Assembly: GCA_015059185.1 (NCBI GenBank)
Contig: SVAY01000003.1
Location: 15,251-79,250, forward strand
DNA: 64,000 bases
Source: Erysipelotrichaceae bacterium
Lineage (GTDB): Bacteria; Bacillota_I; Bacilli_A; RFN20; CAG-826
Direction of reading: 5' to 3'
Shown: in pieces, positions 39,795 to 55,375 of the stretch
Layout of the letters: each line of letters opens with the position of its first letter
Position numbering within the stretch: position 1 is the stretch's first letter
Translations under genes and position numbers: made by a program
Notes under the pieces: model-generated
What the model was told of the DNA's origin: nothing
The model's database searches: none
What the model saw: only the letters and a program-made list of their open reading frames with translations

Positions 39795-41435
39795 CTATCT
39801 ATATACTTCATCCTTAAATGCACTATTTTTATGTGAAAATGATAATCCAATTAACAATATCCTTTTAGAATTAATACGTAGCGCATCTGAATAGTATTTA
39901 TGTTCTTTAATTTGGTTTAAAGCTTTAGAAGCGGATTTTTCTAAATCACTTATTGAAGGTCTGTTTTTTAAGTATTTAAGTTCTAAAATAATTGAATAAT
40001 CGTTATTTGATATCGATCTAATCACTATGTCGCACCTTCCTTGGCCTTCTTCAATTTCACTGCTGACAAGAGCGTCGTCCATCAAAACAGATCCCAAGGT
40101 GACAATCATAATTTGATATGCTTTTTCAGAATTTAAATCTAAATATGAAAGCCTATTTTGAATATAAAAAGCAAGATTGGAAACAAATTCTTTAGTATTA
40201 AATGATATTAACGATTCCTTTATCTTTTTTAGAATCATAAAATTATCTTTATTCACTAATGTTTCCATGATTTCTTTGTTAAAGGCAATTTTAATTTCCT
40301 CATTCACTATCCTTACTGTATAGTAATTGCTTGGAAAATTAGGATGTATAGATAAATAACCACTAAACGCTAATAAAGAATATAGATTGATATTGTTATC
40401 AACGAAATCATAACTTATATTTTCATTGATTGTTGTATTAACATTTTCTCCATTAGTTAAAGATACTAAATCACTATTTACGTCACCACTTAATAGCTTC
40501 ACGGTCTCATGTAACAATTTATATGATCCTGTATTCGTCCAATAAGCCTTATATACAAATATATTTGATATAAAATTTAAAATTGACCAGGGATTATATA
40601 CTTCTTTATTTTGGAAAAAATATCCACCATACCACCTCTTCACTTCGTTATAATCACCATTGAAGTTTGAATATCTCAATAGTTTTTCAACCTCATCATC
40701 AGTAAAGCCGAAAAACTCATCTTTATTAGATAAGATATTATTAACCATCAAATTGTTTAAATCTGAAAAGATAGAAGAATGTGATACTTGGGTTATTCCA
40801 GTTACGATAGCTTTATATAGATAAGGGTTGCTTTTAATCGCATTACCTAAAAAGTCTTTCATAAGGTCTCTAGCATCATCAAAATAGCCATTCACATATG
40901 CGGTTTCTAAAGGTGTATCGTATTCATCAATTAAAATAATAGTCTTGACATTATTTTTCTTATATAACTTTTTAGTAAGGTAATATAAAGATTCTTTTAA
41001 TTCATTATTAGTACATTTACGATTTATGACATTATTTTCAAAATCATTTTCAGGGTTAATTAAATCACTATAAATATCAGATATCTTAAACTTCAATAAT
41101 TCAATATAATCAGCATAACTACGTCCGTTTATACCCTTTAAGTTAAGATGTATAACGTTATATTTATTTATATATTCAGCATATCTATGATCTTTATTAA
41201 TAATATTAGTGTCTTTAAATAAGGTTAATGAATCTTCATTGATATCAAAAAAATATTTACATAAAGAAAGCATTAATGATTTTCCAAATCTACGTGGACG
41301 GGTAAAGAGAAATGTCGCGGATTCAGGGGAATTAATTATATCTTCTAAAAACAATGTTTTATCCACATAATAACAATCTTTTTTTACTGTTTTGAAATCA
41401 TCAACGCCTATTGGCAAATACAAATTTGGAATCAT
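39795..41435 (-). CDS. AAA-ATPase-like (PF09820-type) N-terminal domain fused to a PD-(D/E)xK nuclease-like (PDDEXK_9/DUF1703) C-terminal domain
   Basis: The N-terminus LPIGVDDFKTVKKDCYYVDKT...TRPRRFGKSL is the hallmark of the predicted AAA-ATPase family. The C-terminus CDIVIRSISNNDYSIILELKY has the (D/E)-x-K pattern. The start is set at MIPNLYLPIG, which has an AGAGGT Shine-Dalgarno sequence 7 nt upstream. The ORF-track start at 41498 lies inside the upstream tandem repeats. Confidence 0.6.
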   Translation of the reverse strand: MIPNLYLPIGVDDFKTVKKDCYYVDKTLFLEDIINSPESATFLFTRPRRFGKSLMLSLCKYFFDINEDSLTLFKDTNIINKDHRYAEYINKYNVIHLNLKGINGRSYADYIELLKFKISDIYSDLINPENDFENNVINRKCTNNELKESLYYLTKKLYKKNNVKTIILIDEYDTPLETAYVNGYFDDARDLMKDFLGNAIKSNPYLYKAIVTGITQVSHSSIFSDLNNLMVNNILSNKDEFFGFTDDEVEKLLRYSNFNGDYNEVKRWYGGYFFQNKEVYNPWSILNFISNIFVYKAYWTNTGSYKLLHETVKLLSGDVNSDLVSLTNGENVNTTINENISYDFVDNNINLYSLLAFSGYLSIHPNFPSNYYTVRIVNEEIKIAFNKEIMETLVNKDNFMILKKIKESLISFNTKEFVSNLAFYIQNRLSYLDLNSEKAYQIMIVTLGSVLMDDALVSSEIEEGQGRCDIVIRSISNNDYSIILELKYLKNRPSISDLEKSASKALNQIKEHKYYSDALRINSKRILLIGLSFSHKNSAFKDEVYR

Positions 41436-41469
41436 ACTTAATACCTCTACAATCATAGAATAATATGCT

Positions 41470-41570
41470 TTCGTGCAAAAATCAACTTCTTCGTGCAAAA
41501 ATCAACTTATTCGTGCAAAAGTGCATTTCTTCGTGCACATTCGTGCAATTTCGTACAGTCTTGTGCAAAT
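41470..41570. repeat. Degenerate tandem-repeat array (about 20-bp units decaying to about 10 bp) carrying 6-7 copies of the core TTCGTGCA(A) on the plus strand (TGCACGAA on the minus strand). It lies immediately upstream of the AAA-ATPase-like/PD-(D/E)xK gene.
   Basis: The units TTCGTGCAAAAATCAACTTC, TTCGTGCAAAAATCAACTTA, TTCGTGCAAAAGTGCATTTC, TTCGTGCACAT, TCGTGCAATT, TCGTACAGTC and TTGTGCAAAT are read directly from the sequence. Confidence 0.7.
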
Positions 41571-41617: not shown

Positions 41618-42433
41618 ATGGAATACTTCAAACTAAATAACGGCAATCTTATACCTAAACTCGCTTATGGCACATGGCTTATCAAGAATTCTGATGCCTA
41701 TAAATGTGTCTCTATGGCGCTTGAAGCAGGATATCGTCACATCGATACCGCGCAAGTGTATAGAAACGAATGCGAAGTAGGTAGAGCAATTAGAGAATAT
41801 AATCTTCCACGTGACGATATTTATCTAGTAAGTAAAGTTAATGCTTGTCATAAAGATTATAAGTCCACTAAAAGAAGTATTTATAACTCTCTTAGGCGAT
41901 TAGGAGTCGATTACATCGACTTAATGTTAATTCACTGCCCTCAACCATGGAACGAATATGGTGGTAAGAATCACTATTATAAAGAAAATGTAGAGGTTTG
42001 GAGAGCACTTGAAGAAGCTTATAAACAAGGAAAAGTTAAAGCAATAGGTGTTTCTAACTTTAATAAGAAAGATACCGCGAATATTTTGGATCACTGTGAG
42101 ATAAGACCGATGGTGAACCAAATAGAGGTTCATATTTATAACACACCTCTAGATTTAATTAATTACTGCAAGAATAACGATATTATTGTTGAATCCTACT
42201 CCCCAATTGCTCACGGAGCAGCGCTTGATGATAAGGTTATCAAAGATATGGCGAACAAATATCATGTATCAGTTGCTCAATTATGCATTAAATACACTCT
42301 TCAATTAGATACAGTATCTATTCCTAAAGCAAGTTCTAAAGAACATATGCTAGATAATATGAAATTAGATTTTGAAATCAATGAAGAAGATATGAAATAT
42401 TTATCCAAGTTAAATAAAAACATCATTTGGTAA
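41618..42433 (+). CDS. Aldo/keto reductase (AKR) family oxidoreductase
   Basis: The 271-aa product has AKR signatures (GYRHIDTAQVY, LVSK, IHCP). Confidence 0.8.
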   Translation: MEYFKLNNGNLIPKLAYGTWLIKNSDAYKCVSMALEAGYRHIDTAQVYRNECEVGRAIREYNLPRDDIYLVSKVNACHKDYKSTKRSIYNSLRRLGVDYIDLMLIHCPQPWNEYGGKNHYYKENVEVWRALEEAYKQGKVKAIGVSNFNKKDTANILDHCEIRPMVNQIEVHIYNTPLDLINYCKNNDIIVESYSPIAHGAALDDKVIKDMANKYHVSVAQLCIKYTLQLDTVSIPKASSKEHMLDNMKLDFEINEEDMKYLSKLNKNIIW

Positions 42434-42438
42434 TATAA

Positions 42439-42981
42439 ATGGAACTGAAATATATCAAGGTTGATAATAAGTATATTCATCATAATCAGATTAAACATCT
42501 ATTTGAGCATGCTTTCCCACCAGTTGAAAGACCAAGTTATAACATGCTTATGTCTTTTCCTCATCATGAGATGTATGCAGTAGAAGATAACTCTACTTTT
42601 ATAGGGCTAGTTGATCTATTAAAATATGAAGATACATTATATATATTTTTCCTTGCAATAAAAAAGACATATAGAGGAAAAGGATATGGTTCAAAAGTAT
42701 TAAAAGATATCACTTCAAAATATAGTAACGACTATCGTATCTATCTATTAGCAGAAAATCCAGATATCGAAAGCAATAACAAATTAGAAAGAATGAATAG
42801 GATCAACTTCTATAAATATAATGGACTAACGTTAAGTGATGAAGTAGTGATTGAATATGGTGTTAACTATAGGGTTCTATATTTTACTAAGCCGGTTCAA
42901 AAAGAGGAGTTTATTGCCTCTATGAAATATTTACTTGGCGATGATTTCTTTTATAAATATTACGTACATAATGTGAAATAA
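42439..42981 (+). CDS. GNAT-family N-acetyltransferase
   Basis: LAIKKTYRGKGYGSKVLKDI matches GNAT motif A (R/Q-x-x-G-x-G/A). Confidence 0.65.
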   Translation: MELKYIKVDNKYIHHNQIKHLFEHAFPPVERPSYNMLMSFPHHEMYAVEDNSTFIGLVDLLKYEDTLYIFFLAIKKTYRGKGYGSKVLKDITSKYSNDYRIYLLAENPDIESNNKLERMNRINFYKYNGLTLSDEVVIEYGVNYRVLYFTKPVQKEEFIASMKYLLGDDFFYKYYVHNVK

Positions 42982-43031
42982 AAAAAGAGGATCTATTAAC
43001 AATTTCCTCTTATATTTTTCTTTAAAAGTGC

Positions 43032-43976
43032 TTATTTAACAAAATCTACTAAAAAACTACTAATTTTTGAATCGTACCCTTCAGTATTATTAATTCTTAC
43101 ATGAGAGTGCTGACCATGTGGGAAGAATTCGATTCTTTTTTCTTTAACGGGGCAAGTTTCATATAACTTCTCACCTAGCTCAGGAAGAGAATAGAAATCC
43201 TCTTTACTATAGATAAATAGCATTGGTTTATTCATCTTTTTAATAACGTTGATTGGTCCCCACTTTTTAGCGGACTTTCCAGCAACAATTCTCATCATTC
43301 CCATGATCTCACTAACAAATGGGAAGATTGGTTTCTTTCTTTCAATAAGATGCTGCTTAAGCGACTCATGGAAGTTTACATACATACCATCAGCAATAAG
43401 TGCTTTAACATAACTTGGACAGCTCTTATCAGTAATCGCATATAACCCAGTTGCAGAACCAATACATAATCCATGAATGATTACACTACTATTTCCTAAT
43501 TCATCATGAGCGAACTTAATCCACGCCAAGATATCTTTATATTCTTTAAGTCCGATAGTGTTATATCTTCCTTCACTTAATCCATGGCTTCTATTATCAA
43601 TAGCCAAAACATTATATCCAGCTTTTCTATATGGTTCAGAGAAGTAATATGAATAAGTTCCTGACTCCATTCTTCCAGGGATAACAATCACAACTTTATC
43701 GCTACCAAAGTCGAAATATTCTCCAATTAAATGGAACTTTTGAGAGTTTATTTCCACTCTTTTACGATTCTTTTCATATTTATTGCCCCACTCTTCACCT
43801 TGTCTAAACATCTCTTTTTGTTCTTCGTCATCCCATGAAACTGTACGACTCCATTTATCTTTAGATGTACGTACAAATAAAACAGTATAAATGACATTAG
43901 AAATGATCAAAGTTGGTAATATATAGAATAAGAGCAATGCTCCTAATAAACCTAGTACAATATAAAGTGCAATCAT
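43032..43976 (-). CDS. Membrane-anchored alpha/beta hydrolase with Cys at the nucleophile-elbow position; last gene of the lipid operon.
   Basis: It has an N-terminal TM helix. IHGLCIGSATGLY aligns with the paralog's LYGISMGATALAY (G-x-S-x-G), putting Cys where Ser normally sits. The Hydrolase_4-like region is NVLAIDNRSHGLSEGRY. Confidence 0.55.
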   Translation of the reverse strand: MIALYIVLGLLGALLLFYILPTLIISNVIYTVLFVRTSKDKWSRTVSWDDEEQKEMFRQGEEWGNKYEKNRKRVEINSQKFHLIGEYFDFGSDKVVIVIPGRMESGTYSYYFSEPYRKAGYNVLAIDNRSHGLSEGRYNTIGLKEYKDILAWIKFAHDELGNSSVIIHGLCIGSATGLYAITDKSCPSYVKALIADGMYVNFHESLKQHLIERKKPIFPFVSEIMGMMRIVAGKSAKKWGPINVIKKMNKPMLFIYSKEDFYSLPELGEKLYETCPVKEKRIEFFPHGQHSHVRINNTEGYDSKISSFLVDFVK

Positions 43977-43985
43977 ATCCTTAAC

Positions 43986-45554
43986 CTATAATAATCCAAT
44001 CATTAAATCTTCTTTTTCTTGTCCACCATTTAAAATAGTGACTTCAATATTTTCATATTTAGAGCTAAATAATTCATTAATCTTTTCTTCAAGATCTTCA
44101 TCAACATTTTTACCTAAAAGAATAAAGGCACTGCTCTTAAAAGAGATGTCATTATAGTTAGCTAATCCTTTAGATAAACACTCTAATAAATCTACATCAC
44201 TAGAAAGAATCTTTTCATTCATATAAGTGACATAATCTCCAACGTTTACTTTAGCTAAATCATTAGAATAACTCTTAATCGCTTTCGAAACGTTTAAACA
44301 CTCCACTCCTACATCTTCTGAAATAGCTTCTAGTCTATTTTCAATGGAACTATCAGGAACGTCCATCGCTAAAGCATAATAGCCTTCAATCACATTTTTT
44401 GTAGGAATAATAACAATGTTTTTCTGAAGTGAGATCTTCACTGCTTGATTAGCAGTCTCGATAATGTTTTTGTCGTTTGGAAGAATGACGATCTTTTCTG
44501 ACTTAATTCTTTTAAATGCATCAAGGAAATTTTGAGTAGATGGATTAGTTGGAAGGAATACATCTACACCCATATCTTTATATACATCTTTTATACCACT
44601 ACCACTAATACAAGCAATATAGACGATTGCTTTAAATGGAATATCTGGTATATCGATTTTATCTTCTTCTTTCTTTTTATTTTCGAGGTTAAGTGATTCT
44701 ACATCTCCTAGTCTTCTCAGGCTTTTGATTATTAAACTAGCTGAACTTGTATACGCTTTTAGAGTTAAAATTTTATCTTTGATTTTTAAATCATATGAAC
44801 TTGACAATTCTTCAATTTTTTTAGATATATCTTCAATGGCAAAATTAAGGTTATTAAGTTTAATAGAGATTTCTAAATAATCTCCTTCACCTTCTAATTT
44901 TTCTTCCTTATTATCTTCGTCCATTACTAAGTCTCTATCAACGATTTGACCTAATAGATATTTATACATTCCTTCGATAATAGTGATGTAACCTTTCGCA
45001 CCACTATCAAGAACATTAGCTTCTTTAAGAACTGGTAATAATTCTGGAGTAAGTTCTAAAGATTTATTAAGTTCATCTAGATATAACTTAAAAGCATCCT
45101 TTTGTGAGATACTACCTCTAATCTTATCTTTAATGTTTTCAATCCCCATTCTAGTCACAGTAAGGATTGTTCCTTCCACTGGTTTTAATACAGCCTTATA
45201 GGCTGTTTTATAGCCAATAATAAAGGCATCACGGAATTCACCAGGATTAACAATAGAATCGTTTCTGAGGGATAAATACATTCCTCTAAAGAGTTGAGAT
45301 AAGATAACTCCTGAATTACCTCTCGCACCTAAAAGCATGCCTGTAGATAATTCTTTAAGATATTTTCCTAAATGTTTATCACTTTTTGCGGTATTAAGTC
45401 CGTTTTCAAGAGTTAAACGCATATTAGTGCCAGTATCACCATCAGCAACAGGAAAAACGTTCATGTCATTAATTTCTTTTTCATGAACGTATAGATTATT
45501 AAGAGCGTTACGCATCATCTTTTCAAAGATGAAACCATTAATTTCGTTTCGCAT
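43986..45554 (-). CDS. DAK2-domain protein of the YloV/FakA family (fatty acid kinase catalytic subunit-like)
   Basis: The N-terminus reads NVFPVADGDTGTNMRLTLENG...GARGNSGVILSQ, a DAK2 domain. The product is 522 aa and the gene is adjacent to a DegV-family gene. Confidence 0.65.
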   Translation of the reverse strand: MRNEINGFIFEKMMRNALNNLYVHEKEINDMNVFPVADGDTGTNMRLTLENGLNTAKSDKHLGKYLKELSTGMLLGARGNSGVILSQLFRGMYLSLRNDSIVNPGEFRDAFIIGYKTAYKAVLKPVEGTILTVTRMGIENIKDKIRGSISQKDAFKLYLDELNKSLELTPELLPVLKEANVLDSGAKGYITIIEGMYKYLLGQIVDRDLVMDEDNKEEKLEGEGDYLEISIKLNNLNFAIEDISKKIEELSSSYDLKIKDKILTLKAYTSSASLIIKSLRRLGDVESLNLENKKKEEDKIDIPDIPFKAIVYIACISGSGIKDVYKDMGVDVFLPTNPSTQNFLDAFKRIKSEKIVILPNDKNIIETANQAVKISLQKNIVIIPTKNVIEGYYALAMDVPDSSIENRLEAISEDVGVECLNVSKAIKSYSNDLAKVNVGDYVTYMNEKILSSDVDLLECLSKGLANYNDISFKSSAFILLGKNVDEDLEEKINELFSSKYENIEVTILNGGQEKEDLMIGLL

Positions 45555-46957
45555 TATTCTTTGTCTTTATTTTCTTCCACTAATTCTTTTGGATTGACAA
45601 GCTCAATATTGGTTGCTTCCTTTTTCTCTTTACCTAATTCCTTAATTGATTTAGGTAAGAAGAACGCTAAGATGAAAGCGATAAAACAAGCAATTGCAGA
45701 GATTACTGTAATAAAGTATGTGCCTGGCAAATCAAAGATTTGATTAGTCTTAAGCACTGTTAATATAGTTGCGCCACCTAAGCCACTCGCTAAAGCACTG
45801 AATAAGCCTTGAATAGCAAAATACATCGCTGAATGAGAGATGCCTGTTTTCTTTTCATCATCTGCCGCAAGTTGAGAAGGAATGCTATAAGCAACAGCAA
45901 ACATTGCTCCAATGGAGAAGGAAGCAAATATACCACCACCAACACAGCATAATGTTTTAGCTAGCCCAGGAGCAACATAACGGGCAATAAAGAACATTGC
46001 TGTCATCGATATTACAAAAACAAGTAATGTATATTGATAAGCAAACTTAAAACCTTTTTTATTAATGAGTTTATTATAAACAATGAATGTTAATGGAACA
46101 GGAGCAAAACTAGAGCCCATTGTGATCGTCATATCCATCTTTCCAATTGAGAAGAATTCATTAATACCACTCAGGAATAACTGTAACCCTAAAGTCATAA
46201 AAGAATAAACAATCATCCAAATAATGAAGTCTTTATTCTTAAATGTATAACCGATAGATTTAATGATATTGACTGGTTTACTAACTTCACCAAAATCACC
46301 ATCTTTAGTAGATTTTTCTTTTATCATAAATAAAGGAACTAGCATCACCAAAACAAGTGGTAAAACAAGTAAAGCAACGATACGAATATTCATTCCTTTT
46401 AAGATCATAGGAACAAGCGCAAAACCAATAATAAAATAGAAAATATCGGCGATTGACTTGGTATTTGTTAAAAATCTGCGGTCTTTTTCGTTATCCACTA
46501 TCTCAGTAAACGTCGCATAATATGTGACCATTGTTAAGGTGTATGAACAGTAGAATAAGACGAGCATTAAGAAATAATAAACAGTGTTTAAAACTGTTGC
46601 TTCTCCGCTATTAGGCACAAGTAAGAAACAGCAATAAGATATAACCATAGGAATGATGCCCAAAACAATCGCAGGTCTTCTTCTACCCCAACGAGAACGT
46701 AAGGTATCAGTGAACTGGGCCATTGGTATATCAATTAAACCATCAATCACTTTAGCAATAACACCAAATACAGCCCATATCGCAGGGACGATTAAATCAA
46801 CACCTTCAAATGTATGATTAGCGACAGCATCTGGCCCAAATCCTTGAGCAATAAGAGCACTACATAAATATGAACCTACAATAATATTGAGTAAGTTCAC
46901 ACCTATTGCCCCAAAGGCGTATAATGCTAATTTCCACTTCTTATTAATTACTTTCAT
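45554..46957 (-). CDS. MFS transporter of the GPH (MelB/MFSD2A-like) family; candidate lysolipid or glycoside symporter.
   Basis: DGLIDIPMAQFTDTLRSRWGRRRPAIVLG is a GPH/MFS_2 signature. There are 12 predicted TM segments. Confidence 0.6.
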   Translation of the reverse strand: MKVINKKWKLALYAFGAIGVNLLNIIVGSYLCSALIAQGFGPDAVANHTFEGVDLIVPAIWAVFGVIAKVIDGLIDIPMAQFTDTLRSRWGRRRPAIVLGIIPMVISYCCFLLVPNSGEATVLNTVYYFLMLVLFYCSYTLTMVTYYATFTEIVDNEKDRRFLTNTKSIADIFYFIIGFALVPMILKGMNIRIVALLVLPLVLVMLVPLFMIKEKSTKDGDFGEVSKPVNIIKSIGYTFKNKDFIIWMIVYSFMTLGLQLFLSGINEFFSIGKMDMTITMGSSFAPVPLTFIVYNKLINKKGFKFAYQYTLLVFVISMTAMFFIARYVAPGLAKTLCCVGGGIFASFSIGAMFAVAYSIPSQLAADDEKKTGISHSAMYFAIQGLFSALASGLGGATILTVLKTNQIFDLPGTYFITVISAIACFIAFILAFFLPKSIKELGKEKKEATNIELVNPKELVEENKDKE

Positions 46958-46961
46958 CTAA

Positions 46962-47903
46962 TTATTCCTTGATAGAGGCTTTGATTTCATTAAATACTTT
47001 TGTTTCTTCAACTAATCCTTCTGAAATTGGCTTACCGTAATAATAGGCCGCCATTAAACCTGGACCAATATTGACTCCACAGTTAGGATATACATCGTTG
47101 ATGTACACTGCTTTAGGATGAATGTTATCTTCAATTAATTTCTTATATACTTCTGCGTTAGCATGTCTATTACTAGTAGCAACGAAGATAATTTGTTCTT
47201 CTGGCTTAATAATATGACGCTTAATGTATTCGATTAAGACTTTATAAGCTTCTTTTTCGCCTTTACATTTACCAATAACAGTAGTCATACCGTTATAGTC
47301 AAACTCTCCAACAGGCTTAATACCTACTAAAGAACCAAAGAAGGCTTTAGAATGAGTTAATCTACCCTTTTTTGCAACGAATGATAAATCATCCATCCAA
47401 CCTGTTTGATGGAAATGGTTCTTATTTCTCTCTAACCAAGCGACAACATCATCAAATGATTTGCCATCACGTCTAAGTTGCGCAGCATAAACTGCTAATA
47501 AACCAAAACCTGGACCAAAACGCATAGAATCGACTAAAGCGATTTGTGCCTCAGGGTAGTTTTCTTTAATTCTATCAACAGCTTGTTTCATAAATGAATA
47601 TGAACCGCTTAAAGTTTGAGAGATGGAGATAGCAATAACTCCTTCACCATTTTTAATATGTTTTTCAAATGCTTGATAACATTCTTCAACATTAGCTGGA
47701 GATGTTTTATAAGCATTAGGATTCTTTTTAAGATCCTTATAGAATTGGTCTCTATTTACTGTTTCCCAGTTTAAGACCGAAGGGTGTTCCACTCCATCTG
47801 GAGTTGTGTAGTGACCCATAATGACGTCAATATCATATTCCTTTCTAAAAAAGTCATTGAGGTCTGAGTTAACGTCAGGCATGATGGCAAAGTACTTATT
47901 CAT
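46962..47903 (-). CDS. DegV-family fatty-acid-binding protein (FakB-like)
   Basis: The N-terminus FAIMPDVNSDL and the segment ISISQTLSGSYSFMKQA resemble DegV (VTDSTSDL ... SSxLSGTYQSA). The product is 313 aa. Confidence 0.55.
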   Translation of the reverse strand: MNKYFAIMPDVNSDLNDFFRKEYDIDVIMGHYTTPDGVEHPSVLNWETVNRDQFYKDLKKNPNAYKTSPANVEECYQAFEKHIKNGEGVIAISISQTLSGSYSFMKQAVDRIKENYPEAQIALVDSMRFGPGFGLLAVYAAQLRRDGKSFDDVVAWLERNKNHFHQTGWMDDLSFVAKKGRLTHSKAFFGSLVGIKPVGEFDYNGMTTVIGKCKGEKEAYKVLIEYIKRHIIKPEEQIIFVATSNRHANAEVYKKLIEDNIHPKAVYINDVYPNCGVNIGPGLMAAYYYGKPISEGLVEETKVFNEIKASIKE

Positions 47904-48831
47904 TGTGTTCTCCTGTAATACTTTCTAGTTGATCTAGATATTTATCTTTATCGTGTAAGGCACATAGTGCATGAGCAGCATCGTCCACGATAATTTTATA
48001 TTTATTGCTTAAGCAATTATTATAATTATCCTCAAAAAACTTATTTATCGCAATACTATCTTTAGACGCGTGAACAAAAACACTAGGAATATGGTTTTTT
48101 TGTAACGATAAAGTGGTTGAAATATTATCCCAACTTATTCCTGCTAGACGCTTACTAAGCCATCTAACTGCACCTGCAAAAAAGAAACTTGGGACATGTT
48201 GAGAAGTCATGATATGTGTAGTTAATTCATTAACACTAGAAAACATACTTTCAAATATTAATAATTTAACTTTTTTATTAACGATTTTTTCTGAAGCATA
48301 CGCTAAAGCGGTTGCCCCCATACTAATACCATATAAATATATGTTATTAATCTTTTCATTTTGAGACACATAATCAAGCCAACTTAAAACATCTTTACTT
48401 TCTTTTTGACCATAAGTTACATATTTACCTTCACTACCTTCATGAGCTCTTTCGTTAATTGCTAAGATGTTATAGCCTTTAGCTAAGAAATATTTAATTT
48501 GATAACCAAAGTTATTAAAAGCATGGGTGTGTAAACCATGATACATAATAATGGTCTTATCACTATTATTAGCAAAATAATAACCAGTTAACTTAAGTCC
48601 GTCAAAAGAGGTAATAGAGACTATTTCGTATTTAGATGAATTTAATAATTCATTTCTAATCGATATCATCTCTTCGGCATAATCTTTAGAATAAGATGTT
48701 TTTCTACTACTTTTATCAATACTCTTTAATGAATTCCTACCAAAGAATTTAAGGAATATTAAATAGATCACAGAGAAATGAATGATGAGAGAAATAATGA
48801 TAAATGCGATAATAACGTATAACCAGACCAT
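47896..48831 (-). CDS. Membrane-anchored alpha/beta hydrolase (G-I-S-M-G nucleophile elbow); paralog of 43032..43976.
   Basis: An N-terminal TM helix, then LYGISMGATALAY, and NILAINERAHEGSEGKY. Confidence 0.6.
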   Translation of the reverse strand: MVWLYVIIAFIIISLIIHFSVIYLIFLKFFGRNSLKSIDKSSRKTSYSKDYAEEMISIRNELLNSSKYEIVSITSFDGLKLTGYYFANNSDKTIIMYHGLHTHAFNNFGYQIKYFLAKGYNILAINERAHEGSEGKYVTYGQKESKDVLSWLDYVSQNEKINNIYLYGISMGATALAYASEKIVNKKVKLLIFESMFSSVNELTTHIMTSQHVPSFFFAGAVRWLSKRLAGISWDNISTTLSLQKNHIPSVFVHASKDSIAINKFFEDNYNNCLSNKYKIIVDDAAHALCALHDKDKYLDQLESITGEHNE

Positions 48832-49487
48832 TACTTTTTCTTTCCTTCACTTAACATGAATTCTTGTAATTCTTTTTCTTTTTCTAATACCACTTCCGTC
48901 GCGCGTTTCATATCTTCACTCGTGATAGCAGTACCACTTTTAAAGCTACTAACGTCTAGAGGAGAGCCAATCGCGACTTCGAGTCTAGAATAAAAATGTT
49001 TACGTCTTTTGATATATAAAGGGATGATTGGAGCGTTCCCTCTCATCGCCATCATCACCATGCCACTTTTAAATTTATGGACCTCTTCATCAGTCTCATT
49101 AATCTTTCCTTCTGGGAACATGGTGACTAAATTACCTTGTTTTAAATTTGAGATGATTTCTTTTACCTGGGCTAAAGAGGTGTTACCTCGAGTAATACCA
49201 ATACATAAAAACCCTTTAGTAAATGCCCATTTTAAGAATTTATTCTTAAATAATTCATCCATACAAATGCAGTGATGTCTTCTAGATTTAATCGTGAGCA
49301 TCAAATACATGGGATCAAAAAGCGTGATGTGATTAGATATAACAAGCGCCCCGCCTTTAATGCGCTTTTTATCTTCTTTATGCAGGAAATATTTCTTTGG
49401 TCTAAACCAAAGTAAACCAGGTATCGCACTGAAACGAATAATATCGTATATCAAATATTTAAACGAAACGGCTCTATTTTTCTTCAT
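48831..49487 (-). CDS. 1-acyl-sn-glycerol-3-phosphate / lysophospholipid acyltransferase (PlsC family)
   Basis: The acyltransferase motifs are SNHITLFDP (NHxxxxD) and FPEGKINE (FPEG). Confidence 0.7.
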   Translation of the reverse strand: MKKNRAVSFKYLIYDIIRFSAIPGLLWFRPKKYFLHKEDKKRIKGGALVISNHITLFDPMYLMLTIKSRRHHCICMDELFKNKFLKWAFTKGFLCIGITRGNTSLAQVKEIISNLKQGNLVTMFPEGKINETDEEVHKFKSGMVMMAMRGNAPIIPLYIKRRKHFYSRLEVAIGSPLDVSSFKSGTAITSEDMKRATEVVLEKEKELQEFMLSEGKKK

Positions 49488-50100
49488 ATAATTTTCCTAA
49501 TTCAATGATTTTGTTTCTTAAGATATTGGTAATATTTTTGACGTTTTCCTTTTCATTTATAGAAGCATCATAAAAATCTCTGACGTTAATTGGTTTACCA
49601 ATAAGAACGCCAATTCTCTTCTTTTTAAAATAGCCGCCTGTTATATAGGTAGGAATAATCTTCACTCCCGTTTCTAAAGCAAGTAAAGCTGCACTTTCCT
49701 TAAAAGGAAGAGGAGATGATTCACCCTTTTTAGGTAAGCGTGATTCAGGGAATATACCTACTATTCCACCTTTAGATAATATCTTTTTACTTTTATCCAT
49801 AAATGAGAAATCATATGTATCACGATTCACATAGATTCCACCCATGCATTTAAGAAATAATCCTAATAATTTCTTTTTATAAAGAACTTCCGCCATTTGA
49901 TAACGTAAAGTTCTAAAGAAATAGACAAACAAAAATACCGCGTAGTCATAGACAGAAGTATGGTTAGAGATAATAATCGAAGGTCCTTTTAATCTTCTTG
50001 ACTGCACTTTCTTATCTTCATATTTAATCTTCCATCGACAAATGATCTTCGCAGGAAGCCATCCAGTTATTTTTACAAAATAATTAAATAGAGCAATCAT
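49474..50100 (-). CDS. Second PlsC-family acyltransferase
   Basis: The motifs are ISNHTSVYD, YVNR and IFPESRLP. Confidence 0.6.
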   Translation of the reverse strand: MIALFNYFVKITGWLPAKIICRWKIKYEDKKVQSRRLKGPSIIISNHTSVYDYAVFLFVYFFRTLRYQMAEVLYKKKLLGLFLKCMGGIYVNRDTYDFSFMDKSKKILSKGGIVGIFPESRLPKKGESSPLPFKESAALLALETGVKIIPTYITGGYFKKKRIGVLIGKPINVRDFYDASINEKENVKNITNILRNKIIELGKLYEEK

Positions 50101-52010
50101 AGTTGCTCCTTAATGAAATTAGCAATATCTGAAGCGCTTTTTAACGTTACTCCACTAGCCTCATCAACAATCTGCACTTCGAATTCGTCATATATAGAAG
50201 AAGCAATAGCGAAATAATCTAAACTATTCGCGCCTAAATCAAGCATGATATCTTTATTTACATCAACTTTATCTAATACCAAGATGTCTTTAATAATATT
50301 TACCGCTTTATCTAATACCGCATCTTTTATTTCTTGATTCTCTTCTTTATCTAAAGAGGCAACTAATAATTTATTATTAATATAATCTCTAGCAAGTCTT
50401 TTACGGTTGATCTTAAATTCGTCACCTTTTAAGAATGATTCTTTTATATAAACTGTTTTACTAATTAAAGTCGCAAGGTTGTTTTCTTTAATTTTTTCCT
50501 TCATGCGTTTATCTAAATCAATAAGCTTATCTAACGTAATATATTTATTTACTTCAACTAATAACGTCACCTTCTTATTATCATCTAGGATTAAAGCGAG
50601 GTTAGGAGTATCAATTAGTCTCACTCTATCTTCGATAATGTTAGGGTTAAGGTTTTCGCCGTTAGAAGCAATGATTAAATCATCTTCCCTACCTAAGAAA
50701 TAATAACGACCATTTTTATATTCCATTAAGTCATGAGTATTGAAATACTCATCATCTTTACGATATTCCTTATGATGGTTGGAGATGATGTATCTTGCAA
50801 GAGTATCTCCTTTAACGAGTAATTCATTTTGTTCATTAATCTTATAAGATAGACCGGTTAATGGTTTACCAATAGAAGCATCCACTAAATAGTTATAATT
50901 AGATGAAAGATCAACTGAGGTAATACCAATCTCTGTCATTCCATATCCGCTAGTAAGTTCATAGCCAATAGAATTAAAGAAAGATAAAACATCTTTAGAG
51001 ATGACGCTTCCTCCACTAATAAAAATGGAAATGGAATCTTTAAACATTTCTTCCCTTATTTCTTTAAACGCTACTTTTGAGAATAATTTACCTAAAGAAG
51101 AATTACCAAGCTTACGTCTAATCTCCATTCCTTTAAGGAATTTGTTATAAGTCTTTTCTCCTCTTTTCTTGATTCCTTTAATCGCCACTTCATAAGTCTT
51201 CTGCCAGAATAAAGGAACGGCAAAGATATGAGTCACTTCATGTTTAAGAATCGTATTTTTAATCGTTTGAGGCGATAAATCATTTAGTCCCACAAACGTG
51301 CGTGAATAAAAACTAAACCAAGTATAGACAGCGATAAAGCCAAATATATGATAAAGAGGAAGGAAAGTTAATAATTTAAGTTCACCTTTATAATGACGTT
51401 TAACATTTTTACTAGCTTGAATGATTTCGGCACTTTGTTTTAATACACCTTTTATTTCTTTTGCAGTATAAGCGGAGATCTTAACGTTCTCACTTGTCCC
51501 ACTCGACATAAAAAGGATTTCTTCTCCAAATTTATTTAATGTATCTTTCTCTTCTAACTTTAATAAGTCTTTATAGAATATATAGTTGGTCTCAAATTTC
51601 TTATGATTAGAAATCACTAATTCACATTCTGTTTCTTTCATCGCTTCGTAAAGCGAAGTGTCATCAAGACGAACATTAAGTAATAAAGGACGATGTCCAC
51701 TTCTAAGGATTGCCCAAAAAGTTTCAATCCAAGTTAAGTCATTATCTAAATAGATGCCAATAACAGATTGAGGTTTAAGATTTAAAGAAGCAATCTTTCT
51801 AGAAAGAGAAATGATGTTATTTTTACTTTCTAAATAAGTAACGCGTTTAATATCAAATCCATAGGTATATTCATAGATGATGTTATTACCTTCAGAGAAC
51901 ATTAGTTCAAATAAAGCATCAAAAGAAGCTTCACTATTATCTAATGAAGCTAATTTATATTTTACAAAGGCATTAATTGATGAATACTCACCAAGATTAT
52001 GATATTTCAT
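50097..52010 (-). CDS. Acyl-AMP ligase (adenylate-forming) fused to a C-terminal acyl-carrier-protein domain (FAAL/Aas-synthetase-like)
   Basis: The AMP-binding core is MSSGTSENVKISAYTAKE ... YGMTEIG ... (the A8-motif lysine after GREDD). The C-terminal 80 aa carry the phosphopantetheine-attachment motif DLGANSLDYF (LGxDSL-like). Confidence 0.6.
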   Translation of the reverse strand: MKYHNLGEYSSINAFVKYKLASLDNSEASFDALFELMFSEGNNIIYEYTYGFDIKRVTYLESKNNIISLSRKIASLNLKPQSVIGIYLDNDLTWIETFWAILRSGHRPLLLNVRLDDTSLYEAMKETECELVISNHKKFETNYIFYKDLLKLEEKDTLNKFGEEILFMSSGTSENVKISAYTAKEIKGVLKQSAEIIQASKNVKRHYKGELKLLTFLPLYHIFGFIAVYTWFSFYSRTFVGLNDLSPQTIKNTILKHEVTHIFAVPLFWQKTYEVAIKGIKKRGEKTYNKFLKGMEIRRKLGNSSLGKLFSKVAFKEIREEMFKDSISIFISGGSVISKDVLSFFNSIGYELTSGYGMTEIGITSVDLSSNYNYLVDASIGKPLTGLSYKINEQNELLVKGDTLARYIISNHHKEYRKDDEYFNTHDLMEYKNGRYYFLGREDDLIIASNGENLNPNIIEDRVRLIDTPNLALILDDNKKVTLLVEVNKYITLDKLIDLDKRMKEKIKENNLATLISKTVYIKESFLKGDEFKINRKRLARDYINNKLLVASLDKEENQEIKDAVLDKAVNIIKDILVLDKVDVNKDIMLDLGANSLDYFAIASSIYDEFEVQIVDEASGVTLKSASDIANFIKEQL

Positions 52011-52056
52011 ACATAATAAAATACCATTAAATGATGGTATTTGTTAATAGATAAAT

Positions 52057-52473
52057 TTATTTATCTTCTTTGACAACTCGACGATCTTCTTGACCGTTAG
52101 CGATGAAAGCAAAGACGGAAGCAACGATGTTAACTTCAACACAGCTAATAACGCCAAAGACAATATTTAAAACCGCTAAAGAAGTAGATGGTCTATCTTT
52201 CTTAGAGGCAATAAATGAGAAGACTGAGTTAATAATAGCTGCAGCCATCCAGATGAAGAATGGAACACTAATAGCAGCGAAAACACCTTGGAATTCTGCT
52301 AATGTGATATTGGAACTAATAGTACCATCAGCAACACCTCTATTGTAGGCTTCTACGAAAGCATCGGTATTTGGTAAAATAACGAAAATTAAAGCAGTAA
52401 TTAAAAATCCAACTGCCGCAACGATGGATAAAATACCACCGACGAGATAAATGATTTTTGAAGCTTTTCTCAT
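52057..52473 (-). CDS. Small membrane protein (three to four TM segments), hypothetical.
   Basis: 138 aa, hydrophobic. Confidence 0.4.
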   Translation of the reverse strand: MRKASKIIYLVGGILSIVAAVGFLITALIFVILPNTDAFVEAYNRGVADGTISSNITLAEFQGVFAAISVPFFIWMAAAIINSVFSFIASKKDRPSTSLAVLNIVFGVISCVEVNIVASVFAFIANGQEDRRVVKEDK

Positions 52474-52535
52474 AAAACTTCCTCCTATAACTAATAAGAT
52501 TTTAACATAGTAAAATCTGTATTTATATATTTTCT

Positions 52536-53444
52536 TTAAGCAACGTATGCGTATAAATCGTAATTATGTGTGATTGGAGTATCAAAATCAAATGGAGTAG
52601 GGATAGGGGCTGTCACCTCTTCTGTCCATTCATAATATGTGCCTTCTTCTTTGCCCTCTATTTGAATTAATAACTTTTCAACTTTATCTCCAGGCCTAAC
52701 ATCCACTGTTTGCATTTTTTGAGTTCCACTCTCTTCATAAAAGAAGGACACTTGAAGAGCATCTTCGTATTTTGCATAAAGAGAGAAACTATTTGTAATA
52801 GGGGTATTATCAAAGTCAAACGGAGTATCATCGTTTAAAGATACATACCAACCATCAAAGTAATATCCTTTCTTCTTTGTCGCATTAGGAGCTTCGCATA
52901 ACTCCCCTTCGTTTACTATCACTGTAGCATATAGGTTTTCATCGATATAAAAGCTAAGCTCGTATTGATTTACTACCGAAGATACCTCTATTGAGCTTGA
53001 TTCACTAGATATAGATGAAGGAGGTTCACTACTATCTTCAATAGAAGATAATCCACTAGTCACACCATCAGAACTACTAGGATCTTCACTAGAAGTTACT
53101 TCACTAGTTGTTCGAGAATTTTCTTCATTTAATTTAACACTTGAATAGGTAACTAACGTCGCACCTCCTACAAGTACCACTGAACTAATACCATAAAATG
53201 CTAGATAATTTTGTAATAACTTTTTATTAATTTGTTTTAAGATTCTCTTTACTGTTCTAAGTAAAAGCTTAACAGTTTTCTCTTTTTGCTTTTCTTCCTT
53301 AGTCTTAGCTTTTTCTTCCTCTTTATATATTCTTTTAAGAATGAAGTTAGAGATAGTAAAAATAGTGATTGAAAGAACACTGATGCCAGTTAAGATGATT
53401 CCAATAACTAAAAGCGTTTTATTCATTTGAGTGTATTTTACCAA
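52536..53444 (-). CDS. Membrane-anchored surface protein with a Ser-rich linker and two Listeria-Bacteroides (Flg_new) repeats
   Basis: An N-terminal TM helix, an S/E-rich low-complexity linker, then KKGYYFDGWYVSLNDDTPFDFDNTPITNSFSLYAKY and a second degenerate repeat. Confidence 0.5.
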   Translation of the reverse strand: MVKYTQMNKTLLVIGIILTGISVLSITIFTISNFILKRIYKEEEKAKTKEEKQKEKTVKLLLRTVKRILKQINKKLLQNYLAFYGISSVVLVGGATLVTYSSVKLNEENSRTTSEVTSSEDPSSSDGVTSGLSSIEDSSEPPSSISSESSSIEVSSVVNQYELSFYIDENLYATVIVNEGELCEAPNATKKKGYYFDGWYVSLNDDTPFDFDNTPITNSFSLYAKYEDALQVSFFYEESGTQKMQTVDVRPGDKVEKLLIQIEGKEEGTYYEWTEEVTAPIPTPFDFDTPITHNYDLYAYVA

Positions 53445-53487
53445 AACTTATATTAATATTTTAGATAAAATAACTGATAATAATTGT

Positions 53488-54861
53488 ATGGCATTAAACT
53501 ATTTAGAACTAAACGAAATTTCTAATGAGATAATTGATAAAATTAGAGGCAATCATATCGCTAATATTTCTTTGATTAATTCAAGCGATGTGATTCTTAC
53601 TTTTTCCTTTTATCGTAAAGAGAAATTATTAATCTCACTTAACCATAACTATCCTTTAATTGGTATGGTTGATAAAGATATCAGTTTTCCTACTATTTTA
53701 AATAAACTTAGTGATGAATTACGTAAGCATATCAAAGACACAATTGTGACTGATATTAGGTGTGTTGAAAAAGAAAGAATAATTGAGATAATCCTACAAA
53801 AAACCGACGAATTCTATGTAAAACGCGAATATTTTTTAATTTTAGAGCTTATTCCACATCATCAAAACTTACTCATATTAGATGATAATAGAACTATTCT
53901 TTTTGCGAATAGATACACCTCTTTAACCGATAAAAGAATCATCATTAAGGGTATGAAATATGAGCTTCCAATAAAGCAAGAATCGAATAAAGAATTAAGC
54001 GTGAATCTAGAAGCATATAGAGACTATTTAAAAGAATATTTATCTACCTCAATGTCGCTCAGACTAAAAGAAAAGTATTCTAAGTTAATTGATACGATTA
54101 AAAGGAAGATTAAAACTGCTACTAATAAGACTGATGTATTAACTAAAGAAATAGAAGAAGCAAAAACAAAGATTGTCTATCAAGAATATGGAACTACTCT
54201 TCTAACTATGAAAGACGATAAGGAATTTATTGAACAATATATTAAAGATAATAACGTTCCTATCGACACTACCAAAAGTTATATAGATAACGCAAATATC
54301 CTCTTTAAAAAATATAAAAAGAGCAAAGAAACTATTACTCGTGATAATGAACAATTAGAGTTAAATAAAGAGTTATTAGATAAACTCAATAATGATTTAA
54401 GTAGTTTAAATGATGCTGATGAAAGTCTATATCTATTCTTAGCTAGTGAATATCTAAAATCACCTATTCCTAAATCTGAAGTAAATAAGCTCGCTCCATT
54501 TTATGTCACGATTGACGGCACTAAAATTGCGTTTGGTAGGAATGCGGTTCAAAATGATTTATTAACATTTAAAAAAGCTCAAAAAGATAATTATTTCTTT
54601 CATATTAAAGATCAAGCTGGATCTCATGTTGTCATCTTAAAAAAGAATCCTAATGATAACGATAAAACTAATGCTAGTGAATTATGTTTAGCTTTAGTTA
54701 ATAAAGAAGCAGGCGAAGTACAAATGGCAGAAATTAGAGACATTAAAAAAGGCCAATTCCTCGGCCAAGTATTATTTAATCATTATACTGTTATTAGAAT
54801 TAACAAAGTTAAGGATAAGATCAAGGTTGCTCTTAATAAAGTATCACGCATTAACCTTTAA
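53488..54861 (+). CDS. rqcH: Rqc2-homolog RqcH / FbpA (NFACT-family ribosome quality-control protein)
   Basis: An NFACT-N-like N-terminus and the NFACT-R/DUF814 block FYVTIDGTKIAFGRNAVQNDLLTFKKAQKDNYFFHIKDQAGSHVVILKK. The start is set at MALNYLEL to avoid overlap with the divergent gene. Confidence 0.65.
   Translation: MALNYLELNEISNEIIDKIRGNHIANISLINSSDVILTFSFYRKEKLLISLNHNYPLIGMVDKDISFPTILNKLSDELRKHIKDTIVTDIRCVEKERIIEIILQKTDEFYVKREYFLILELIPHHQNLLILDDNRTILFANRYTSLTDKRIIIKGMKYELPIKQESNKELSVNLEAYRDYLKEYLSTSMSLRLKEKYSKLIDTIKRKIKTATNKTDVLTKEIEEAKTKIVYQEYGTTLLTMKDDKEFIEQYIKDNNVPIDTTKSYIDNANILFKKYKKSKETITRDNEQLELNKELLDKLNNDLSSLNDADESLYLFLASEYLKSPIPKSEVNKLAPFYVTIDGTKIAFGRNAVQNDLLTFKKAQKDNYFFHIKDQAGSHVVILKKNPNDNDKTNASELCLALVNKEAGEVQMAEIRDIKKGQFLGQVLFNHYTVIRINKVKDKIKVALNKVSRINL

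Positions 54862-55374: not shown

Positions 55375-55375
<1 letters not shown>
54851..55375 (-). CDS. trmL: SpoU/TrmL-family tRNA 2'-O-methyltransferase
   Basis: A SPOUT fold of 174 aa with the N-terminus IVLYQPEKPQNTGNIMRTC. Confidence 0.65.

Follow-up and report, generated by a model that had tools for sequence, protein, structure and literature searches.

Gene content, catalytic motifs and conserved synteny of an eight-gene operon in an Erysipelotrichaceae genome suggest a role in fatty-acid salvage and membrane-lipid acylation

The stretch of DNA analysed here, which we call the window, is 64,000 nt long and comes from a metagenome-assembled genome (MAG) labelled Erysipelotrichaceae. We located its genes from a listing of open reading frames (ORFs) and assigned domains with Pfam and NCBIfam. 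Eight successive minus-strand ORFs between positions 43032 and 52010 form the putative operon that is the subject of this report. In the order of reading they encode an ANL-family ligase with a C-terminal acyl carrier domain (50097–52010, 637 aa); two PlsC/LPLAT acyltransferases matching PF01553, here AT1 (49474–50100, 208 aa) and AT2 (48831–49487, 218 aa); a membrane-anchored alpha/beta hydrolase, HY1 (47896–48831, 311 aa, Hydrolase_4/Abhydrolase_1); a DegV or FakB-like fatty-acid-binding protein (46962–47903, 313 aa, DegV); a GPH-family secondary transporter (45554–46957, 467 aa, MFS_2); a FakA-like Dak2 protein (43986–45554, 522 aa, Dak2 plus FakA-like_C); and a membrane-anchored alpha/beta-fold enzyme, HY2 (43032–43976, 314 aa, Hydrolase_4/Abhydrolase_1). 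Successive junctions from the ligase to HY2 measure −4, −14, −1, −8, +4, −1 and +9 nt. An earlier reading of this DNA from its letters alone (the original prediction) had described eight tightly packed or overlapping genes, and both the coordinates and all eight of its family assignments were confirmed, the latter by hidden Markov model searches of Pfam and NCBIfam.

A scan of one genome per GTDB species revealed at least 560 matching stretches, of which the best 80 were retained. The ORFs of these loci were translated and searched with the window proteins, and genes were counted per locus in the 58 of the 80 loci that extend 11.5 kb or more downstream from the ligase start. The best 80 derive from rumen and gut Ruminococcus, Oscillospiraceae, Lachnospiraceae and unclassified Clostridia, together with an Erysipelotrichaceae and a Bacilli MAG, and two cultured strains, Ruminococcaceae bacterium P7 and Ruminococcus sp. 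JE7B6 (NZ_CP162391), are among them. Anaerobes of the rumen or gut (goat, sheep, reindeer, buffalo and human) make up the overwhelming majority of the hosts, and more than 100 full-length homologues of the ligase at 45–71% identity were found in gut and rumen metagenomes.

Gene order was constant in all 58 loci: ligase-ACP (ACP, acyl carrier protein), AT1, AT2, an optional block (a second ligase, a second ACP and an LRAT protein with or without a phosphopantetheinyl transferase, PPTase), HY1, DegV, the optional transporter, FakA and HY2. AT1 was present in all 58 and AT2 in 56, being fused to AT1 in the other two; DegV and FakA were each found in 55, HY1 in 53, HY2 in 46 (several loci end before HY2) and the transporter in 29. 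What nearly all loci share as a core is thus a ligase that brings its own carrier, a pair of O-acyltransferases, FakB-like and FakA proteins, and two anchored acyl-enzyme catalysts. The second ligase, which is FadD-like and scores 223 bits against the long-chain-fatty-acid-CoA ligase subfamily, occurs in 51 of the 58 loci; behind it, in those loci that were examined, come genes for a free ACP (about 84 aa) and for a cysteine acyltransferase of the LRAT/PLAAT type, the latter frequently as a fusion with a PPTase of the Sfp type. Only six of the 58 loci share the eight-gene layout of the window, without the second ligase, and some carry a third alpha/beta hydrolase, a class-3 lipase (Lipase_3), a FAD amine-oxidase-type protein or an iron-dependent alcohol dehydrogenase in or beside the cluster. 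The window therefore carries a reduced form of a larger conserved Firmicutes cluster.

Comparison with the relative L089, which is 97–98% identical, gave ratios of nonsynonymous to synonymous change (dN/dS) of 0.04–0.11 for all eight genes, which are under purifying selection. With the same order in 58 of 58 loci and low dN/dS throughout, the arrangement is far beyond chance, and the operon is therefore real, old and maintained by selection. Elsewhere in the 64 kb we found no second DegV, FakA, PlsC, ACP or ligase, no PPTase and no LRAT; the whole window gave no Rfam match at the gathering threshold and no tRNA with ARAGORN. A full-text literature search returned no description of this combination of genes.

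The ligase is annotated as a hypothetical protein in its database record and matches Pfam AMP-binding at 2.6e-30. Its adenylation motifs, namely the P-loop S169-S-G-T-x4-K177, GYGMTE at 355–360, the GRxDD sequence G440-R-E-D-D444 and the A10 motif F532-K533-x-N-R, are invariant or nearly so in 18 homologues of 45–71% identity. The ACP domain spans residues ~562–637 (nt 50100–50327) and holds the phosphopantetheine-accepting Ser596 (codon 50223–50225) in the motif D591-x-G593-x-x-S596-x-D598, which is invariant in 18 homologues (family pattern D-x-G-x-[TSN]-S-[LMI]-D-[YF]). As a single sequence this domain scores 17.1 bits on PP-binding, for which the cut-off is 20.8; as a family profile (residues 564–638) it retrieves dozens of FAS-type ACPs from the PDB at 1e-11 to 1e-9, with 1x3o at 1.7e-11 and 1acp at 4.5e-9. 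The fused carrier proposed originally thus stands, its serine being present and invariant, and the occurrence of a PPTase within the cluster in most relatives likewise indicates that the carriers are real.

The accompanying comparison of the ligase with Aas or FAAL-ACP systems fared less well, since by sequence the enzyme resembles neither FAAL nor AasS. Its nearest solved relatives are MenE, coronafacate ligase (Cfl), 4-chlorobenzoate ligase (CBAL) and FadD13. No FAAL structure occurs among all 17 PDB matches of the single sequence at E ≤ 1e-3 or among the best 60 of 91 matches of the family profile at E ≤ 1e-6, and AasS is not in the best 60 of those 91 either. The family profile also aligns as an A-T didomain with the non-ribosomal peptide synthetases (NRPS) LgrA, McyG and TycA. 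Because the adenylation domain is divergent and its nearest solved neighbours are those listed, it is the gene context that suggests a fatty acid as substrate.

AT1 and AT2 are paralogues that both score above the cut-off for PF01553 (5.2e-18 and 2.8e-22, respectively). AT1 carries N46-H47-x4-D52 (NHTSVYD) and F117-P-E-S, and AT2 carries N52-H53-x4-D58 (NHITLFD) and F124-P-E-G127. Across the families NHxxxxD is present in 80 of 80 AT1 and 74 of 74 AT2 proteins, so the two PlsC acyltransferases with intact motifs predicted from the letters alone are upheld; the block-III sequence FPE[SGA] was found in 63 of the 80 AT1 proteins and FPEG in 71 of the 74 AT2 proteins. In NCBIfam, AT2 matched the AGPAT domain at 1.5e-20 and the acyltransferase segment of the Aas-type model NF006386 at 5.4e-19, both below cut-off. 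Indeed, the two proteins score about equally on the AGPAT domain and the Aas-type segment, always below cut-off, and their 51–67 bits on the Aas segment are far below the full-length cut-offs. Their only PDB match is Thermotoga maritima PlsC, 5kym (AT1 8.9e-10, AT2 7e-13). Neither contains a transmembrane (TM) segment, and AT1 is soluble or peripheral. In two species AT1 and AT2 are fused into one protein of 431–435 aa with two HX4D motifs (L042:11931–13226 and L071:4254–5561), and this natural fusion argues for tandem or coupled action on one acceptor.

HY1 and HY2 are likewise paralogues, each having one N-terminal hydrophobic helix (a hydrophobic segment at residues 1–31 of HY1, a TM segment at residues 1–35 of HY2) followed by a basic stretch that, by the positive-inside rule, would probably place the catalytic domains in the cytoplasm. 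The fold neighbours of the pair are Pf2001 esterase, monoacylglycerol lipases and the MARTX PLA1-type ABH domain. HY1 has the triad Ser170-Asp258-His287; H98-G99, G168-x-S170-x-G172, D258 and H287 are invariant in 24 syntenic homologues, and its best PDB match is Pf2001 esterase (5g59, 2.7e-33). HY2 instead has the triad Cys171-Asp260-His290 (Cys codon 43464–43466), with H168-G-x-C171-x-G173, D260 and H290 invariant in 26 syntenic and 32 database homologues, and its AlphaFold2 (AF2) model (pLDDT 93.4) places Cys171 at the nucleophile elbow between strand 164–170 and helix 172–182. Acyl transfer, rather than hydrolysis, is the usual activity of alpha/beta enzymes with a Cys nucleophile (SyrC/CmaE, PhaC, Cys-type thioesterases), and on the strength of this precedent and the invariant Cys we read HY2 as probably a thioester-forming transacylase or a thioesterase, not a lipase. 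Of the two alpha/beta hydrolases first proposed, both therefore keep the fold and HY1 has a full serine triad, but HY2 is more probably a transacylase than a lipase.

The DegV protein scores above cut-off on both the Pfam model (1.6e-47, 162.6 bits) and TIGR00762 (7e-54, 182.9 bits). Its PDB matches include 3pl5 at 7e-27 and FakB1 structures at about 1e-12, and against the FakB1 equivalog model it reaches 96 bits, the cut-off being 350. In Streptococcus suis FakB2, T61, S93 and H264 hold the fatty-acid carboxylate and R170 is essential (PMC10848957). Among 18 operon DegV proteins the corresponding S95 and R181 do not vary, and Thr or Ser occupies the Thr/Ser position throughout, but an invariant Asn278 (N278-x-GPG) replaces the carboxylate-binding His of FakB (H-x-GP(G/N)). 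The FakB-like assignment is thus borne out in fold, Ser95 and Arg181 and fails at the histidine.

FakA of the window, annotated as a DAK2 domain-containing protein, matches Pfam Dak2 (1.2e-33) and FakA-like_C (8.3e-43) and gives no Pfam match to FakA-like_M (PF21645); on TIGR03599 it reaches 390.5 bits, just below the cut-off of 396.1. The ATP/Mg site of the N domain, D38-G-D40-T-G, is invariant, and GARGNSG and PVEGT are conserved. Staphylococcus aureus FakA needs the central-domain residues Cys240, His282 and His284, and the C240A change cuts its activity more than 100-fold (PMC9136124). In the window protein GYC[TM]EF has become GDYLEIS and VKVHIHT has become LTLKAYT, leaving no Cys or His, and the C-domain loop GGQSMNPS is shortened to PTNPS. 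The FakA of L089 is ~97% identical to that of the window, and GDYLEIS and LTLKAYT recur in L002, whose C-terminal part is masked; the other operon FakA proteins, in Clostridia and in the Bacilli loci L003, L015 and L023, keep GYC[TM]EF and VKVHIHT. The dN/dS ratio is 0.05 in the N domain, 0.05 in the C domain and 0.85 over residues 205–310 (about seven substitutions), so that the central domain is almost neutral while the flanking domains are constrained. The assignment as a DAK2 kinase accordingly holds for the N and C domains, but the Cys-His-His set required for kinase activity in S. aureus is missing from the window protein. As judged from these substitutions, the kinase step in the window lineage may be impaired or work differently, which would leave the ligase-ACP as the main route of activation. 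One Ruminococcus locus, L059, has a second, complete FakA 8 kb upstream of the operon, and the operon copy there is therefore a dedicated paralogue.

The relative L002, which is 68% identical, also has its HY1 split into two ORFs (13100–14250), and its FakA region at 16653–18385 holds masked bases, seen as a run of X in the translation; these features reflect either assembly damage or gene decay.

The transporter matches Pfam MFS_2 at 5.6e-32 (111 bits, cut-off 27). Against TIGR00792 (gph) it reaches 6e-13 and 48 bits where 231 are needed, and its other NCBIfam matches, to glucuronide and YagG transporters, are weak and far below cut-off; it matches no LplT/Aas-type NCBIfam model, only gph-type ones. 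A single-sequence search of the PDB gave no match. A profile of 28 transporter sequences matched only MFSD2A (7mjs at 2.3e-4, 8d2s, 7oix) and plant SUC1, not MelB, in the PDB. For the AF2 model (pLDDT 83) the top Foldseek matches were MFSD2A structures 8d2t and 7mjs, closely followed by MelB 8t60, and all of the top 10 PDB matches are MFSD2A or MelB, so that its 12-TM fold is nearest to that of GPH members. The TM2 pair D72/D76 is invariant, and we take its position to be that of the cation-site aspartates, D55/D59 in MelB and D93/D97 in MFSD2A. Orthologues form more than 120 clusters at >50% identity, and every one of the 29 GTDB loci with a transporter places it between DegV and FakA, as do the two metagenome contigs that were sampled. 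These results agree with the original assignment to a GPH/MFS_2 family related to MFSD2A, which gave the best profile and fold matches. The prediction had named clustering with sugar symporters and co-occurrence with glycoside hydrolases as grounds for abandoning it; what we found is a lipid-operon context, with no glycoside hydrolase adjoining the transporter in the window or in two fully annotated contigs. The fold alone cannot prove a lysolipid substrate, which stays a prediction from sequence and model. As no more than 29 of the 58 loci have the gene, importing lysolipids cannot be the operon's core function, and the placing of import in a core pipeline, as first suggested, is not sustained.

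Signals at the two ends of the operon are weak. Directly 3' of HY2, on the minus strand at 42979–43011, a terminator-like hairpin read from the sequence (a 7-bp stem AAGAGGA/TCCUCUU with a 13-nt loop, then a U run) is common to this operon and a convergent GNAT gene; it folds at −8.4 kcal/mol with a weak z of −1.45, and the consensus scanner made no call there. The 46-nt leader 5' of the ligase gene (52011–52056, minus strand), where all matches are to consensus only, has a promoter-like TTAACA-18-TATTTT (52047–52018) overlapping a 9-bp AU-rich hairpin that folds at −7.8 kcal/mol (z = −1.97) and is followed by a U-rich tract. No clear Shine-Dalgarno sequence was seen in this leader. A consensus scan of 42300–55500 found 57 promoter-like sites against 69 in shuffles and no convincing internal terminators, and is uninformative on co-transcription. 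Because both end signals are weak and the scan does no better than shuffles, it is the packing of the genes that suggests a single transcript.

A candidate ninth gene lies directly upstream of the ligase gene (52057–52473, minus strand) and encodes a small membrane protein with four TM segments that matches Pfam DUF4064 at 7e-6, below cut-off. A DUF4064 gene occupies the same upstream position in the Bacilli relatives L001–L004 and L023, and in about 25 Clostridia loci a small Zn-ribbon/DUF4190 (DUF4064-like) membrane protein follows HY2. By association only, the DUF4064-type protein may be an accessory membrane subunit. Upstream of the DUF4064 gene stands a gene for a Listeria-Bacteroides-repeat membrane protein (52536–53444, minus strand). 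Proteins of similar size also precede the DUF4064 gene in L002 and L003, and only that of L002 matches the window repeat protein. The longest ORF of the latter (TTG start at 53444) overlaps the 5' end of a divergent NFACT (RqcH-like) gene (GTG at 53431) by 14 nt, and its true start is probably an internal ATG six codons downstream.

Neighbouring genes in other loci include, in the Clostridia locus L088 (869–4061), a DltB-like MBOAT gene flanked by genes for two unannotated proteins and lying immediately upstream of the ligase-ACP gene; it scores 185 bits against TIGR04091, below cut-off, and hints at surface-polymer acylation in some variants. A FAD amine-oxidase/CrtI-like gene (508 aa) stands immediately upstream of the ligase at L005:8472–9998, a position in which it is seen in some loci. 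The polyunsaturated fatty-acid isomerase of Propionibacterium acnes has a FAD amine-oxidase-type fold, and on this basis the neighbour may be a fatty-acid-modifying enzyme.

Our preferred reading, held with middling confidence, is that the operon encodes a self-contained module, acting at the membrane's cytoplasmic face, for salvaging exogenous fatty acids and acylating or reacylating membrane lipids. The ligase would adenylate a long-chain fatty acid and load its own fused, phosphopantetheinylated ACP, producing an acyl-ACP donor that depends neither on the type II pathway for making fatty acids (FASII) nor on AcpP; free fatty acids would be taken up whether released outside the cell or within the membrane. 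AT1 and AT2 would then use acyl-ACP for two successive O-acylations of a glycerolipid acceptor, for which lysophospholipid, a glycerophosphodiester and glycerol-3-phosphate are the candidates. DegV may extract fatty acid from the bilayer and pass it to its FakA-like partner, as FakB does to FakA. At the inner leaflet HY1 and HY2 would have acyl esters or thioesters as substrates, HY1 acting through its serine as a (lyso)lipase that releases acyl chains and HY2 through its cysteine as a covalent transacylase or thioesterase. Where present, the Na+/H+-coupled GPH transporter may bring a lysolipid-like amphiphile across the membrane, like MFSD2A or LplT. The salvage reading is supported by the extra FadD-like ligase of relatives and by their further lipid enzymes (LRAT, Lipase_3 and a third hydrolase). 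The pipeline of import, activation and transfer that the original prediction drew from these genes thus stands in part: the complement of MFS, LPLAT, ANL ligase and ACP domains is that of LplT/Aas, but the transporter is optional and the ligase is not Aas-like.

The window itself encodes two class-3 lipases of the Lipase_3 family that are lipoproteins, at 4773–6311 and 9358–10815 (both minus strand; lipobox LAAC and ATSC, respectively, with GxSxG), and these could plausibly supply the operon with fatty acids and lysolipids from outside the cell; they resemble mollicute-style surface lipoproteins. Abutting the second is a gene for a 2250-aa lipoprotein lacking a Pfam domain (10799–17551, minus strand).

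Several observations weigh against fatty-acid salvage as the function. DegV lacks the FakB histidine and the window FakA lacks Cys240, His282 and His284. The ligase, being nearest to MenE, Cfl and CBAL and not to AasS, Aas or FAAL, may use another acid. The transporter is absent from half of the loci, and with MelB third by fold, lysolipid and sugar are not separated as substrates. Two activation systems in one operon imply redundancy, no phospholipid head-group or plsX/plsY genes were linked to the operon in the loci examined, and the promoter and terminator signals for a single transcript are weak. Lastly, a dedicated PPTase, two carriers and two ligases resemble a biosynthetic gene cluster.

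This last point leads to the alternative that fares best, albeit a somewhat unlikely one in our view, namely that the cluster makes a specialised acylated lipid or metabolite and does not serve bulk phospholipid remodelling. The ligase-ACP, joined in relatives by the second ligase and ACP, would deliver specific acyl groups; on a scaffold of its own kind these would be put together by the two LPLATs, the LRAT and the Cys alpha/beta enzyme, and the product would leave through the MFS protein. The NRPS-like architecture of the ligase, with its A-T didomain similarity to LgrA and McyG, and the name 'non-ribosomal peptide synthetase' given to homologues by NCBI are consistent with this, as are the in-cluster Sfp-type PPTase, second ligase plus ACP and LRAT of relatives, the typical role of Cys-nucleophile alpha/beta enzymes such as SyrC/CmaE and PhaC as transferases, the DltB-like MBOAT adjoining one locus, and the fact that gut Clostridia run A-plus-ACP pathways on exogenous fatty acids (OaaA/OaaACP/OaaC). 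However, the core contains no condensation, reductase, glycosyl- or amino-transfer, scaffold-making or tailoring genes, and it does contain FakA and DegV, for which no role outside fatty-acid salvage is known. Its distribution is also very broad and apparently largely vertical, spanning two classes with 41–51% ligase identity and constant order, and such a pattern fits core physiology better than a niche metabolite. Two narrower candidates were rejected: the clostridial fatty-acid-amide pathway (OaaA/ACP/C) is ruled out since the cluster has no condensation domain, and Dlt-like D-alanylation as the role of the relatives' extra ligase and ACP is ruled out since that ligase is FadD-like and absent from the window.

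A bolder form of the salvage reading, which we advance tentatively and consider rather unlikely, is that the operon is an ACP-autonomous Lands-cycle machine at the inner leaflet, a new route for exogenous acyl groups into Gram-positive membranes and the Gram-positive counterpart of LplT/Aas. An acyl relay would run through acyl-phosphate (FakB-like/FakA), acyl-S-Cys (the anchored alpha/beta enzyme) and acyl-S-ACP (the ligase) to the two coupled acyltransferases, with a bacterial MFSD2A-like GPH transporter supplying lysolipids. If true, it would show that a FakA without Cys-His-His still functions.

The original prediction saw in the operon a solution for a mollicute-like auxotroph, and in its fullest form this view would make it the essential primary phosphatidic-acid pathway of a fatty-acid auxotroph, an organism lacking FASII, AcpP and PlsX, in which ligase-ACP, AT1 and AT2 replace PlsY and PlsC and make the whole of the membrane lipid from imported fatty acids. 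We judge this improbable. The low G+C content (0.25–0.37 in 2-kb windows), the many orphan genes, the lipoprotein lipases and the Erysipelotrichaceae-labelled host MAG are compatible with such an organism; the fused ACP would give independence from AcpP, two acyltransferases suffice to convert glycerol-3-phosphate to lysophosphatidic and then phosphatidic acid, and no other PlsC, ACP, DegV or FakA lies within the 64-kb window. But a 64-kb window says nothing of the rest of the genome, and most carriers are Ruminococcus, Oscillospiraceae and Lachnospiraceae, one of which has a second canonical FakA 8 kb away. In L059, then, the operon supplies a FakA beyond the canonical one, and this points to an accessory role for the system there. 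Since the cluster is mainly one of Clostridia and one host has a second complete FakA, the auxotroph framing cannot be general; for the MAG of the window it may hold.

Detoxification of free fatty acids, by esterifying toxic unsaturated acids or by using the MFS protein to expel lysolipids or acylated products (or both), seems to us quite improbable as the function. The hosts are overwhelmingly rumen and gut anaerobes, in whose surroundings lipolysis frees toxic unsaturated acids, a FAD amine-oxidase-type enzyme or an iron-dependent alcohol dehydrogenase stands beside some clusters, and the incorporation of exogenous fatty acids by rumen bacteria has been described as largely unexplored (PMC12394162). 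This explanation, however, overlaps largely with salvage, esterification being itself salvage; nothing in the sequence points to efflux, and the transporter is optional.

Very improbable indeed is that the transporter is an ordinary sugar or glycoside symporter among lipid genes and that the eight genes are not one functional unit: some sources do name its orthologues 'GPH family glycoside/pentoside/hexuronide:cation symporter', it has its weak glucuronide and YagG matches and MelB is a close fold neighbour, but its NCBIfam sugar-transporter scores are far below cut-off (48 vs 231 bits), its family profile matches MFSD2A and not MelB, no glycoside hydrolase is adjacent, and it sits between DegV and FakA with junctions of 1–4 nt in the window and in the same place in the 29 loci and both contigs. 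A sugar-utilisation operon as a whole was also rejected, no glycoside hydrolase being adjacent in the two annotated contigs.

Other parts of the window deserve brief mention. At 37790–41498 (minus strand), between an HD-domain gene and an aldo-keto reductase gene, lie three genes encoding an AAA-ATPase_like plus PDDEXK_9 protein, a DUF3990 protein with PARP and helix-turn-helix matches, and an orphan. They are absent from L089, in which the HD and reductase genes adjoin, which suggests that ~4 kb were inserted recently, perhaps as a defence or mobile element. Another DUF3990 gene occurs at 20332–20979. A collagen-triple-helix-repeat protein and several large orphans, one with a signal peptide, are encoded at 25277–26584, 26914–29175 and 30320–32215 (all minus strand), within a run of minus-strand genes that lack Pfam matches.

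Among Firmicutes of the rumen and gut the operon is conserved in several hundred species at the least. If fatty-acid salvage with (re)acylation of membrane lipids is the correct reading, it would explain how lipids from diet and host are dealt with, and phospholipase damage repaired, by reduced Bacilli and by the abundant Clostridia that degrade fibre, and it would be the missing Gram-positive analogue of LplT/Aas. It would also provide natural variants with which to test models of Fak proteins and alpha/beta transacylases, namely the FakB His-to-Asn change, a FakA without its catalytic residues and a Cys-nucleophile hydrolase. The operon is open to direct testing, since two of its carriers, Ruminococcus sp. 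JE7B6 and Ruminococcaceae bacterium P7, are in culture.

Every component comes from a known family, but we found no published description of the combination, and several of the catalytic substitutions are unusual. AT1 and AT2 share with T. maritima PlsC (5KYM) the HX4D and block-III FPE(G/S) motifs; they differ in that their matches begin at PlsC residue 78–79, after what we take to be the two-helix membrane-embedding motif of PlsC, in being two paralogues, sometimes fused, and in scoring below the NCBIfam AGPAT cut-off. The transporter resembles MFSD2A, the vertebrate Na+-dependent lysophosphatidylcholine symporter, and MelB in its Pfam family (MFS_2), its top profile and Foldseek matches and its TM2 Asp pair, although identity is only 14–17% and MelB is almost as close in fold.

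With AasS of Vibrio harveyi and AasC/LpaT of Chlamydia the operon has in common an ANL enzyme that would make acyl-ACP from exogenous fatty acid for PlsC-type acyltransferases and so bypass FASII; its carrier, however, is fused in cis, and the nearest solved ligases are MenE, Cfl, CBAL and FadD13. The FakA/FakB system of S. aureus and Streptococcus extracts and activates exogenous fatty acids (PMC9136124; PMC10848957). The operon likewise has linked genes for a DegV protein of FakB fold with Ser95, Arg181 and the Thr/Ser residue and for a FakA with N (DGDTG) and C domains, but its DegV has Asn for His264, the window FakA lacks Cys240/His282/His284 and GGQSMNPS, the genes lie amid a ligase-ACP and acyltransferases and not in a plsX/acpP neighbourhood, and at least one Ruminococcus has another FakA besides that of the operon. 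OaaA/OaaACP/OaaC of Coprococcus eutactus (PMC13310621) offers a stand-alone adenylating enzyme, a dedicated PPTase-primed ACP and diet-derived fatty acids as points of similarity; its products, however, are amides formed by an NRPS condensation domain, whereas the operon has PlsC-type O-acyltransferases, Fak proteins and alpha/beta enzymes.

The proposed function follows the logic of FakAB combined with the Escherichia coli LplT/Aas system, the latter identified only in Gram-negative bacteria and not in Gram-positives (PMC11416262). LplT/Aas and, by prediction, the operon each bring together in one operon or fusion an MFS flippase or importer, a PlsC-family acyltransferase, an ANL acyl-ACP synthetase and an ACP carrier, both would act at the cytoplasmic membrane face, and the operon acyltransferases score on the Aas-type acyltransferase segment. 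In contrast to LplT/Aas, the operon transporter is of the GPH/MFS_2 type and optional, the ligase is not Aas-like and carries a fused ACP that is not borrowed from FASII, and two separate acyltransferases are joined by FakA, DegV and two anchored alpha/beta enzymes in Gram-positive hosts.

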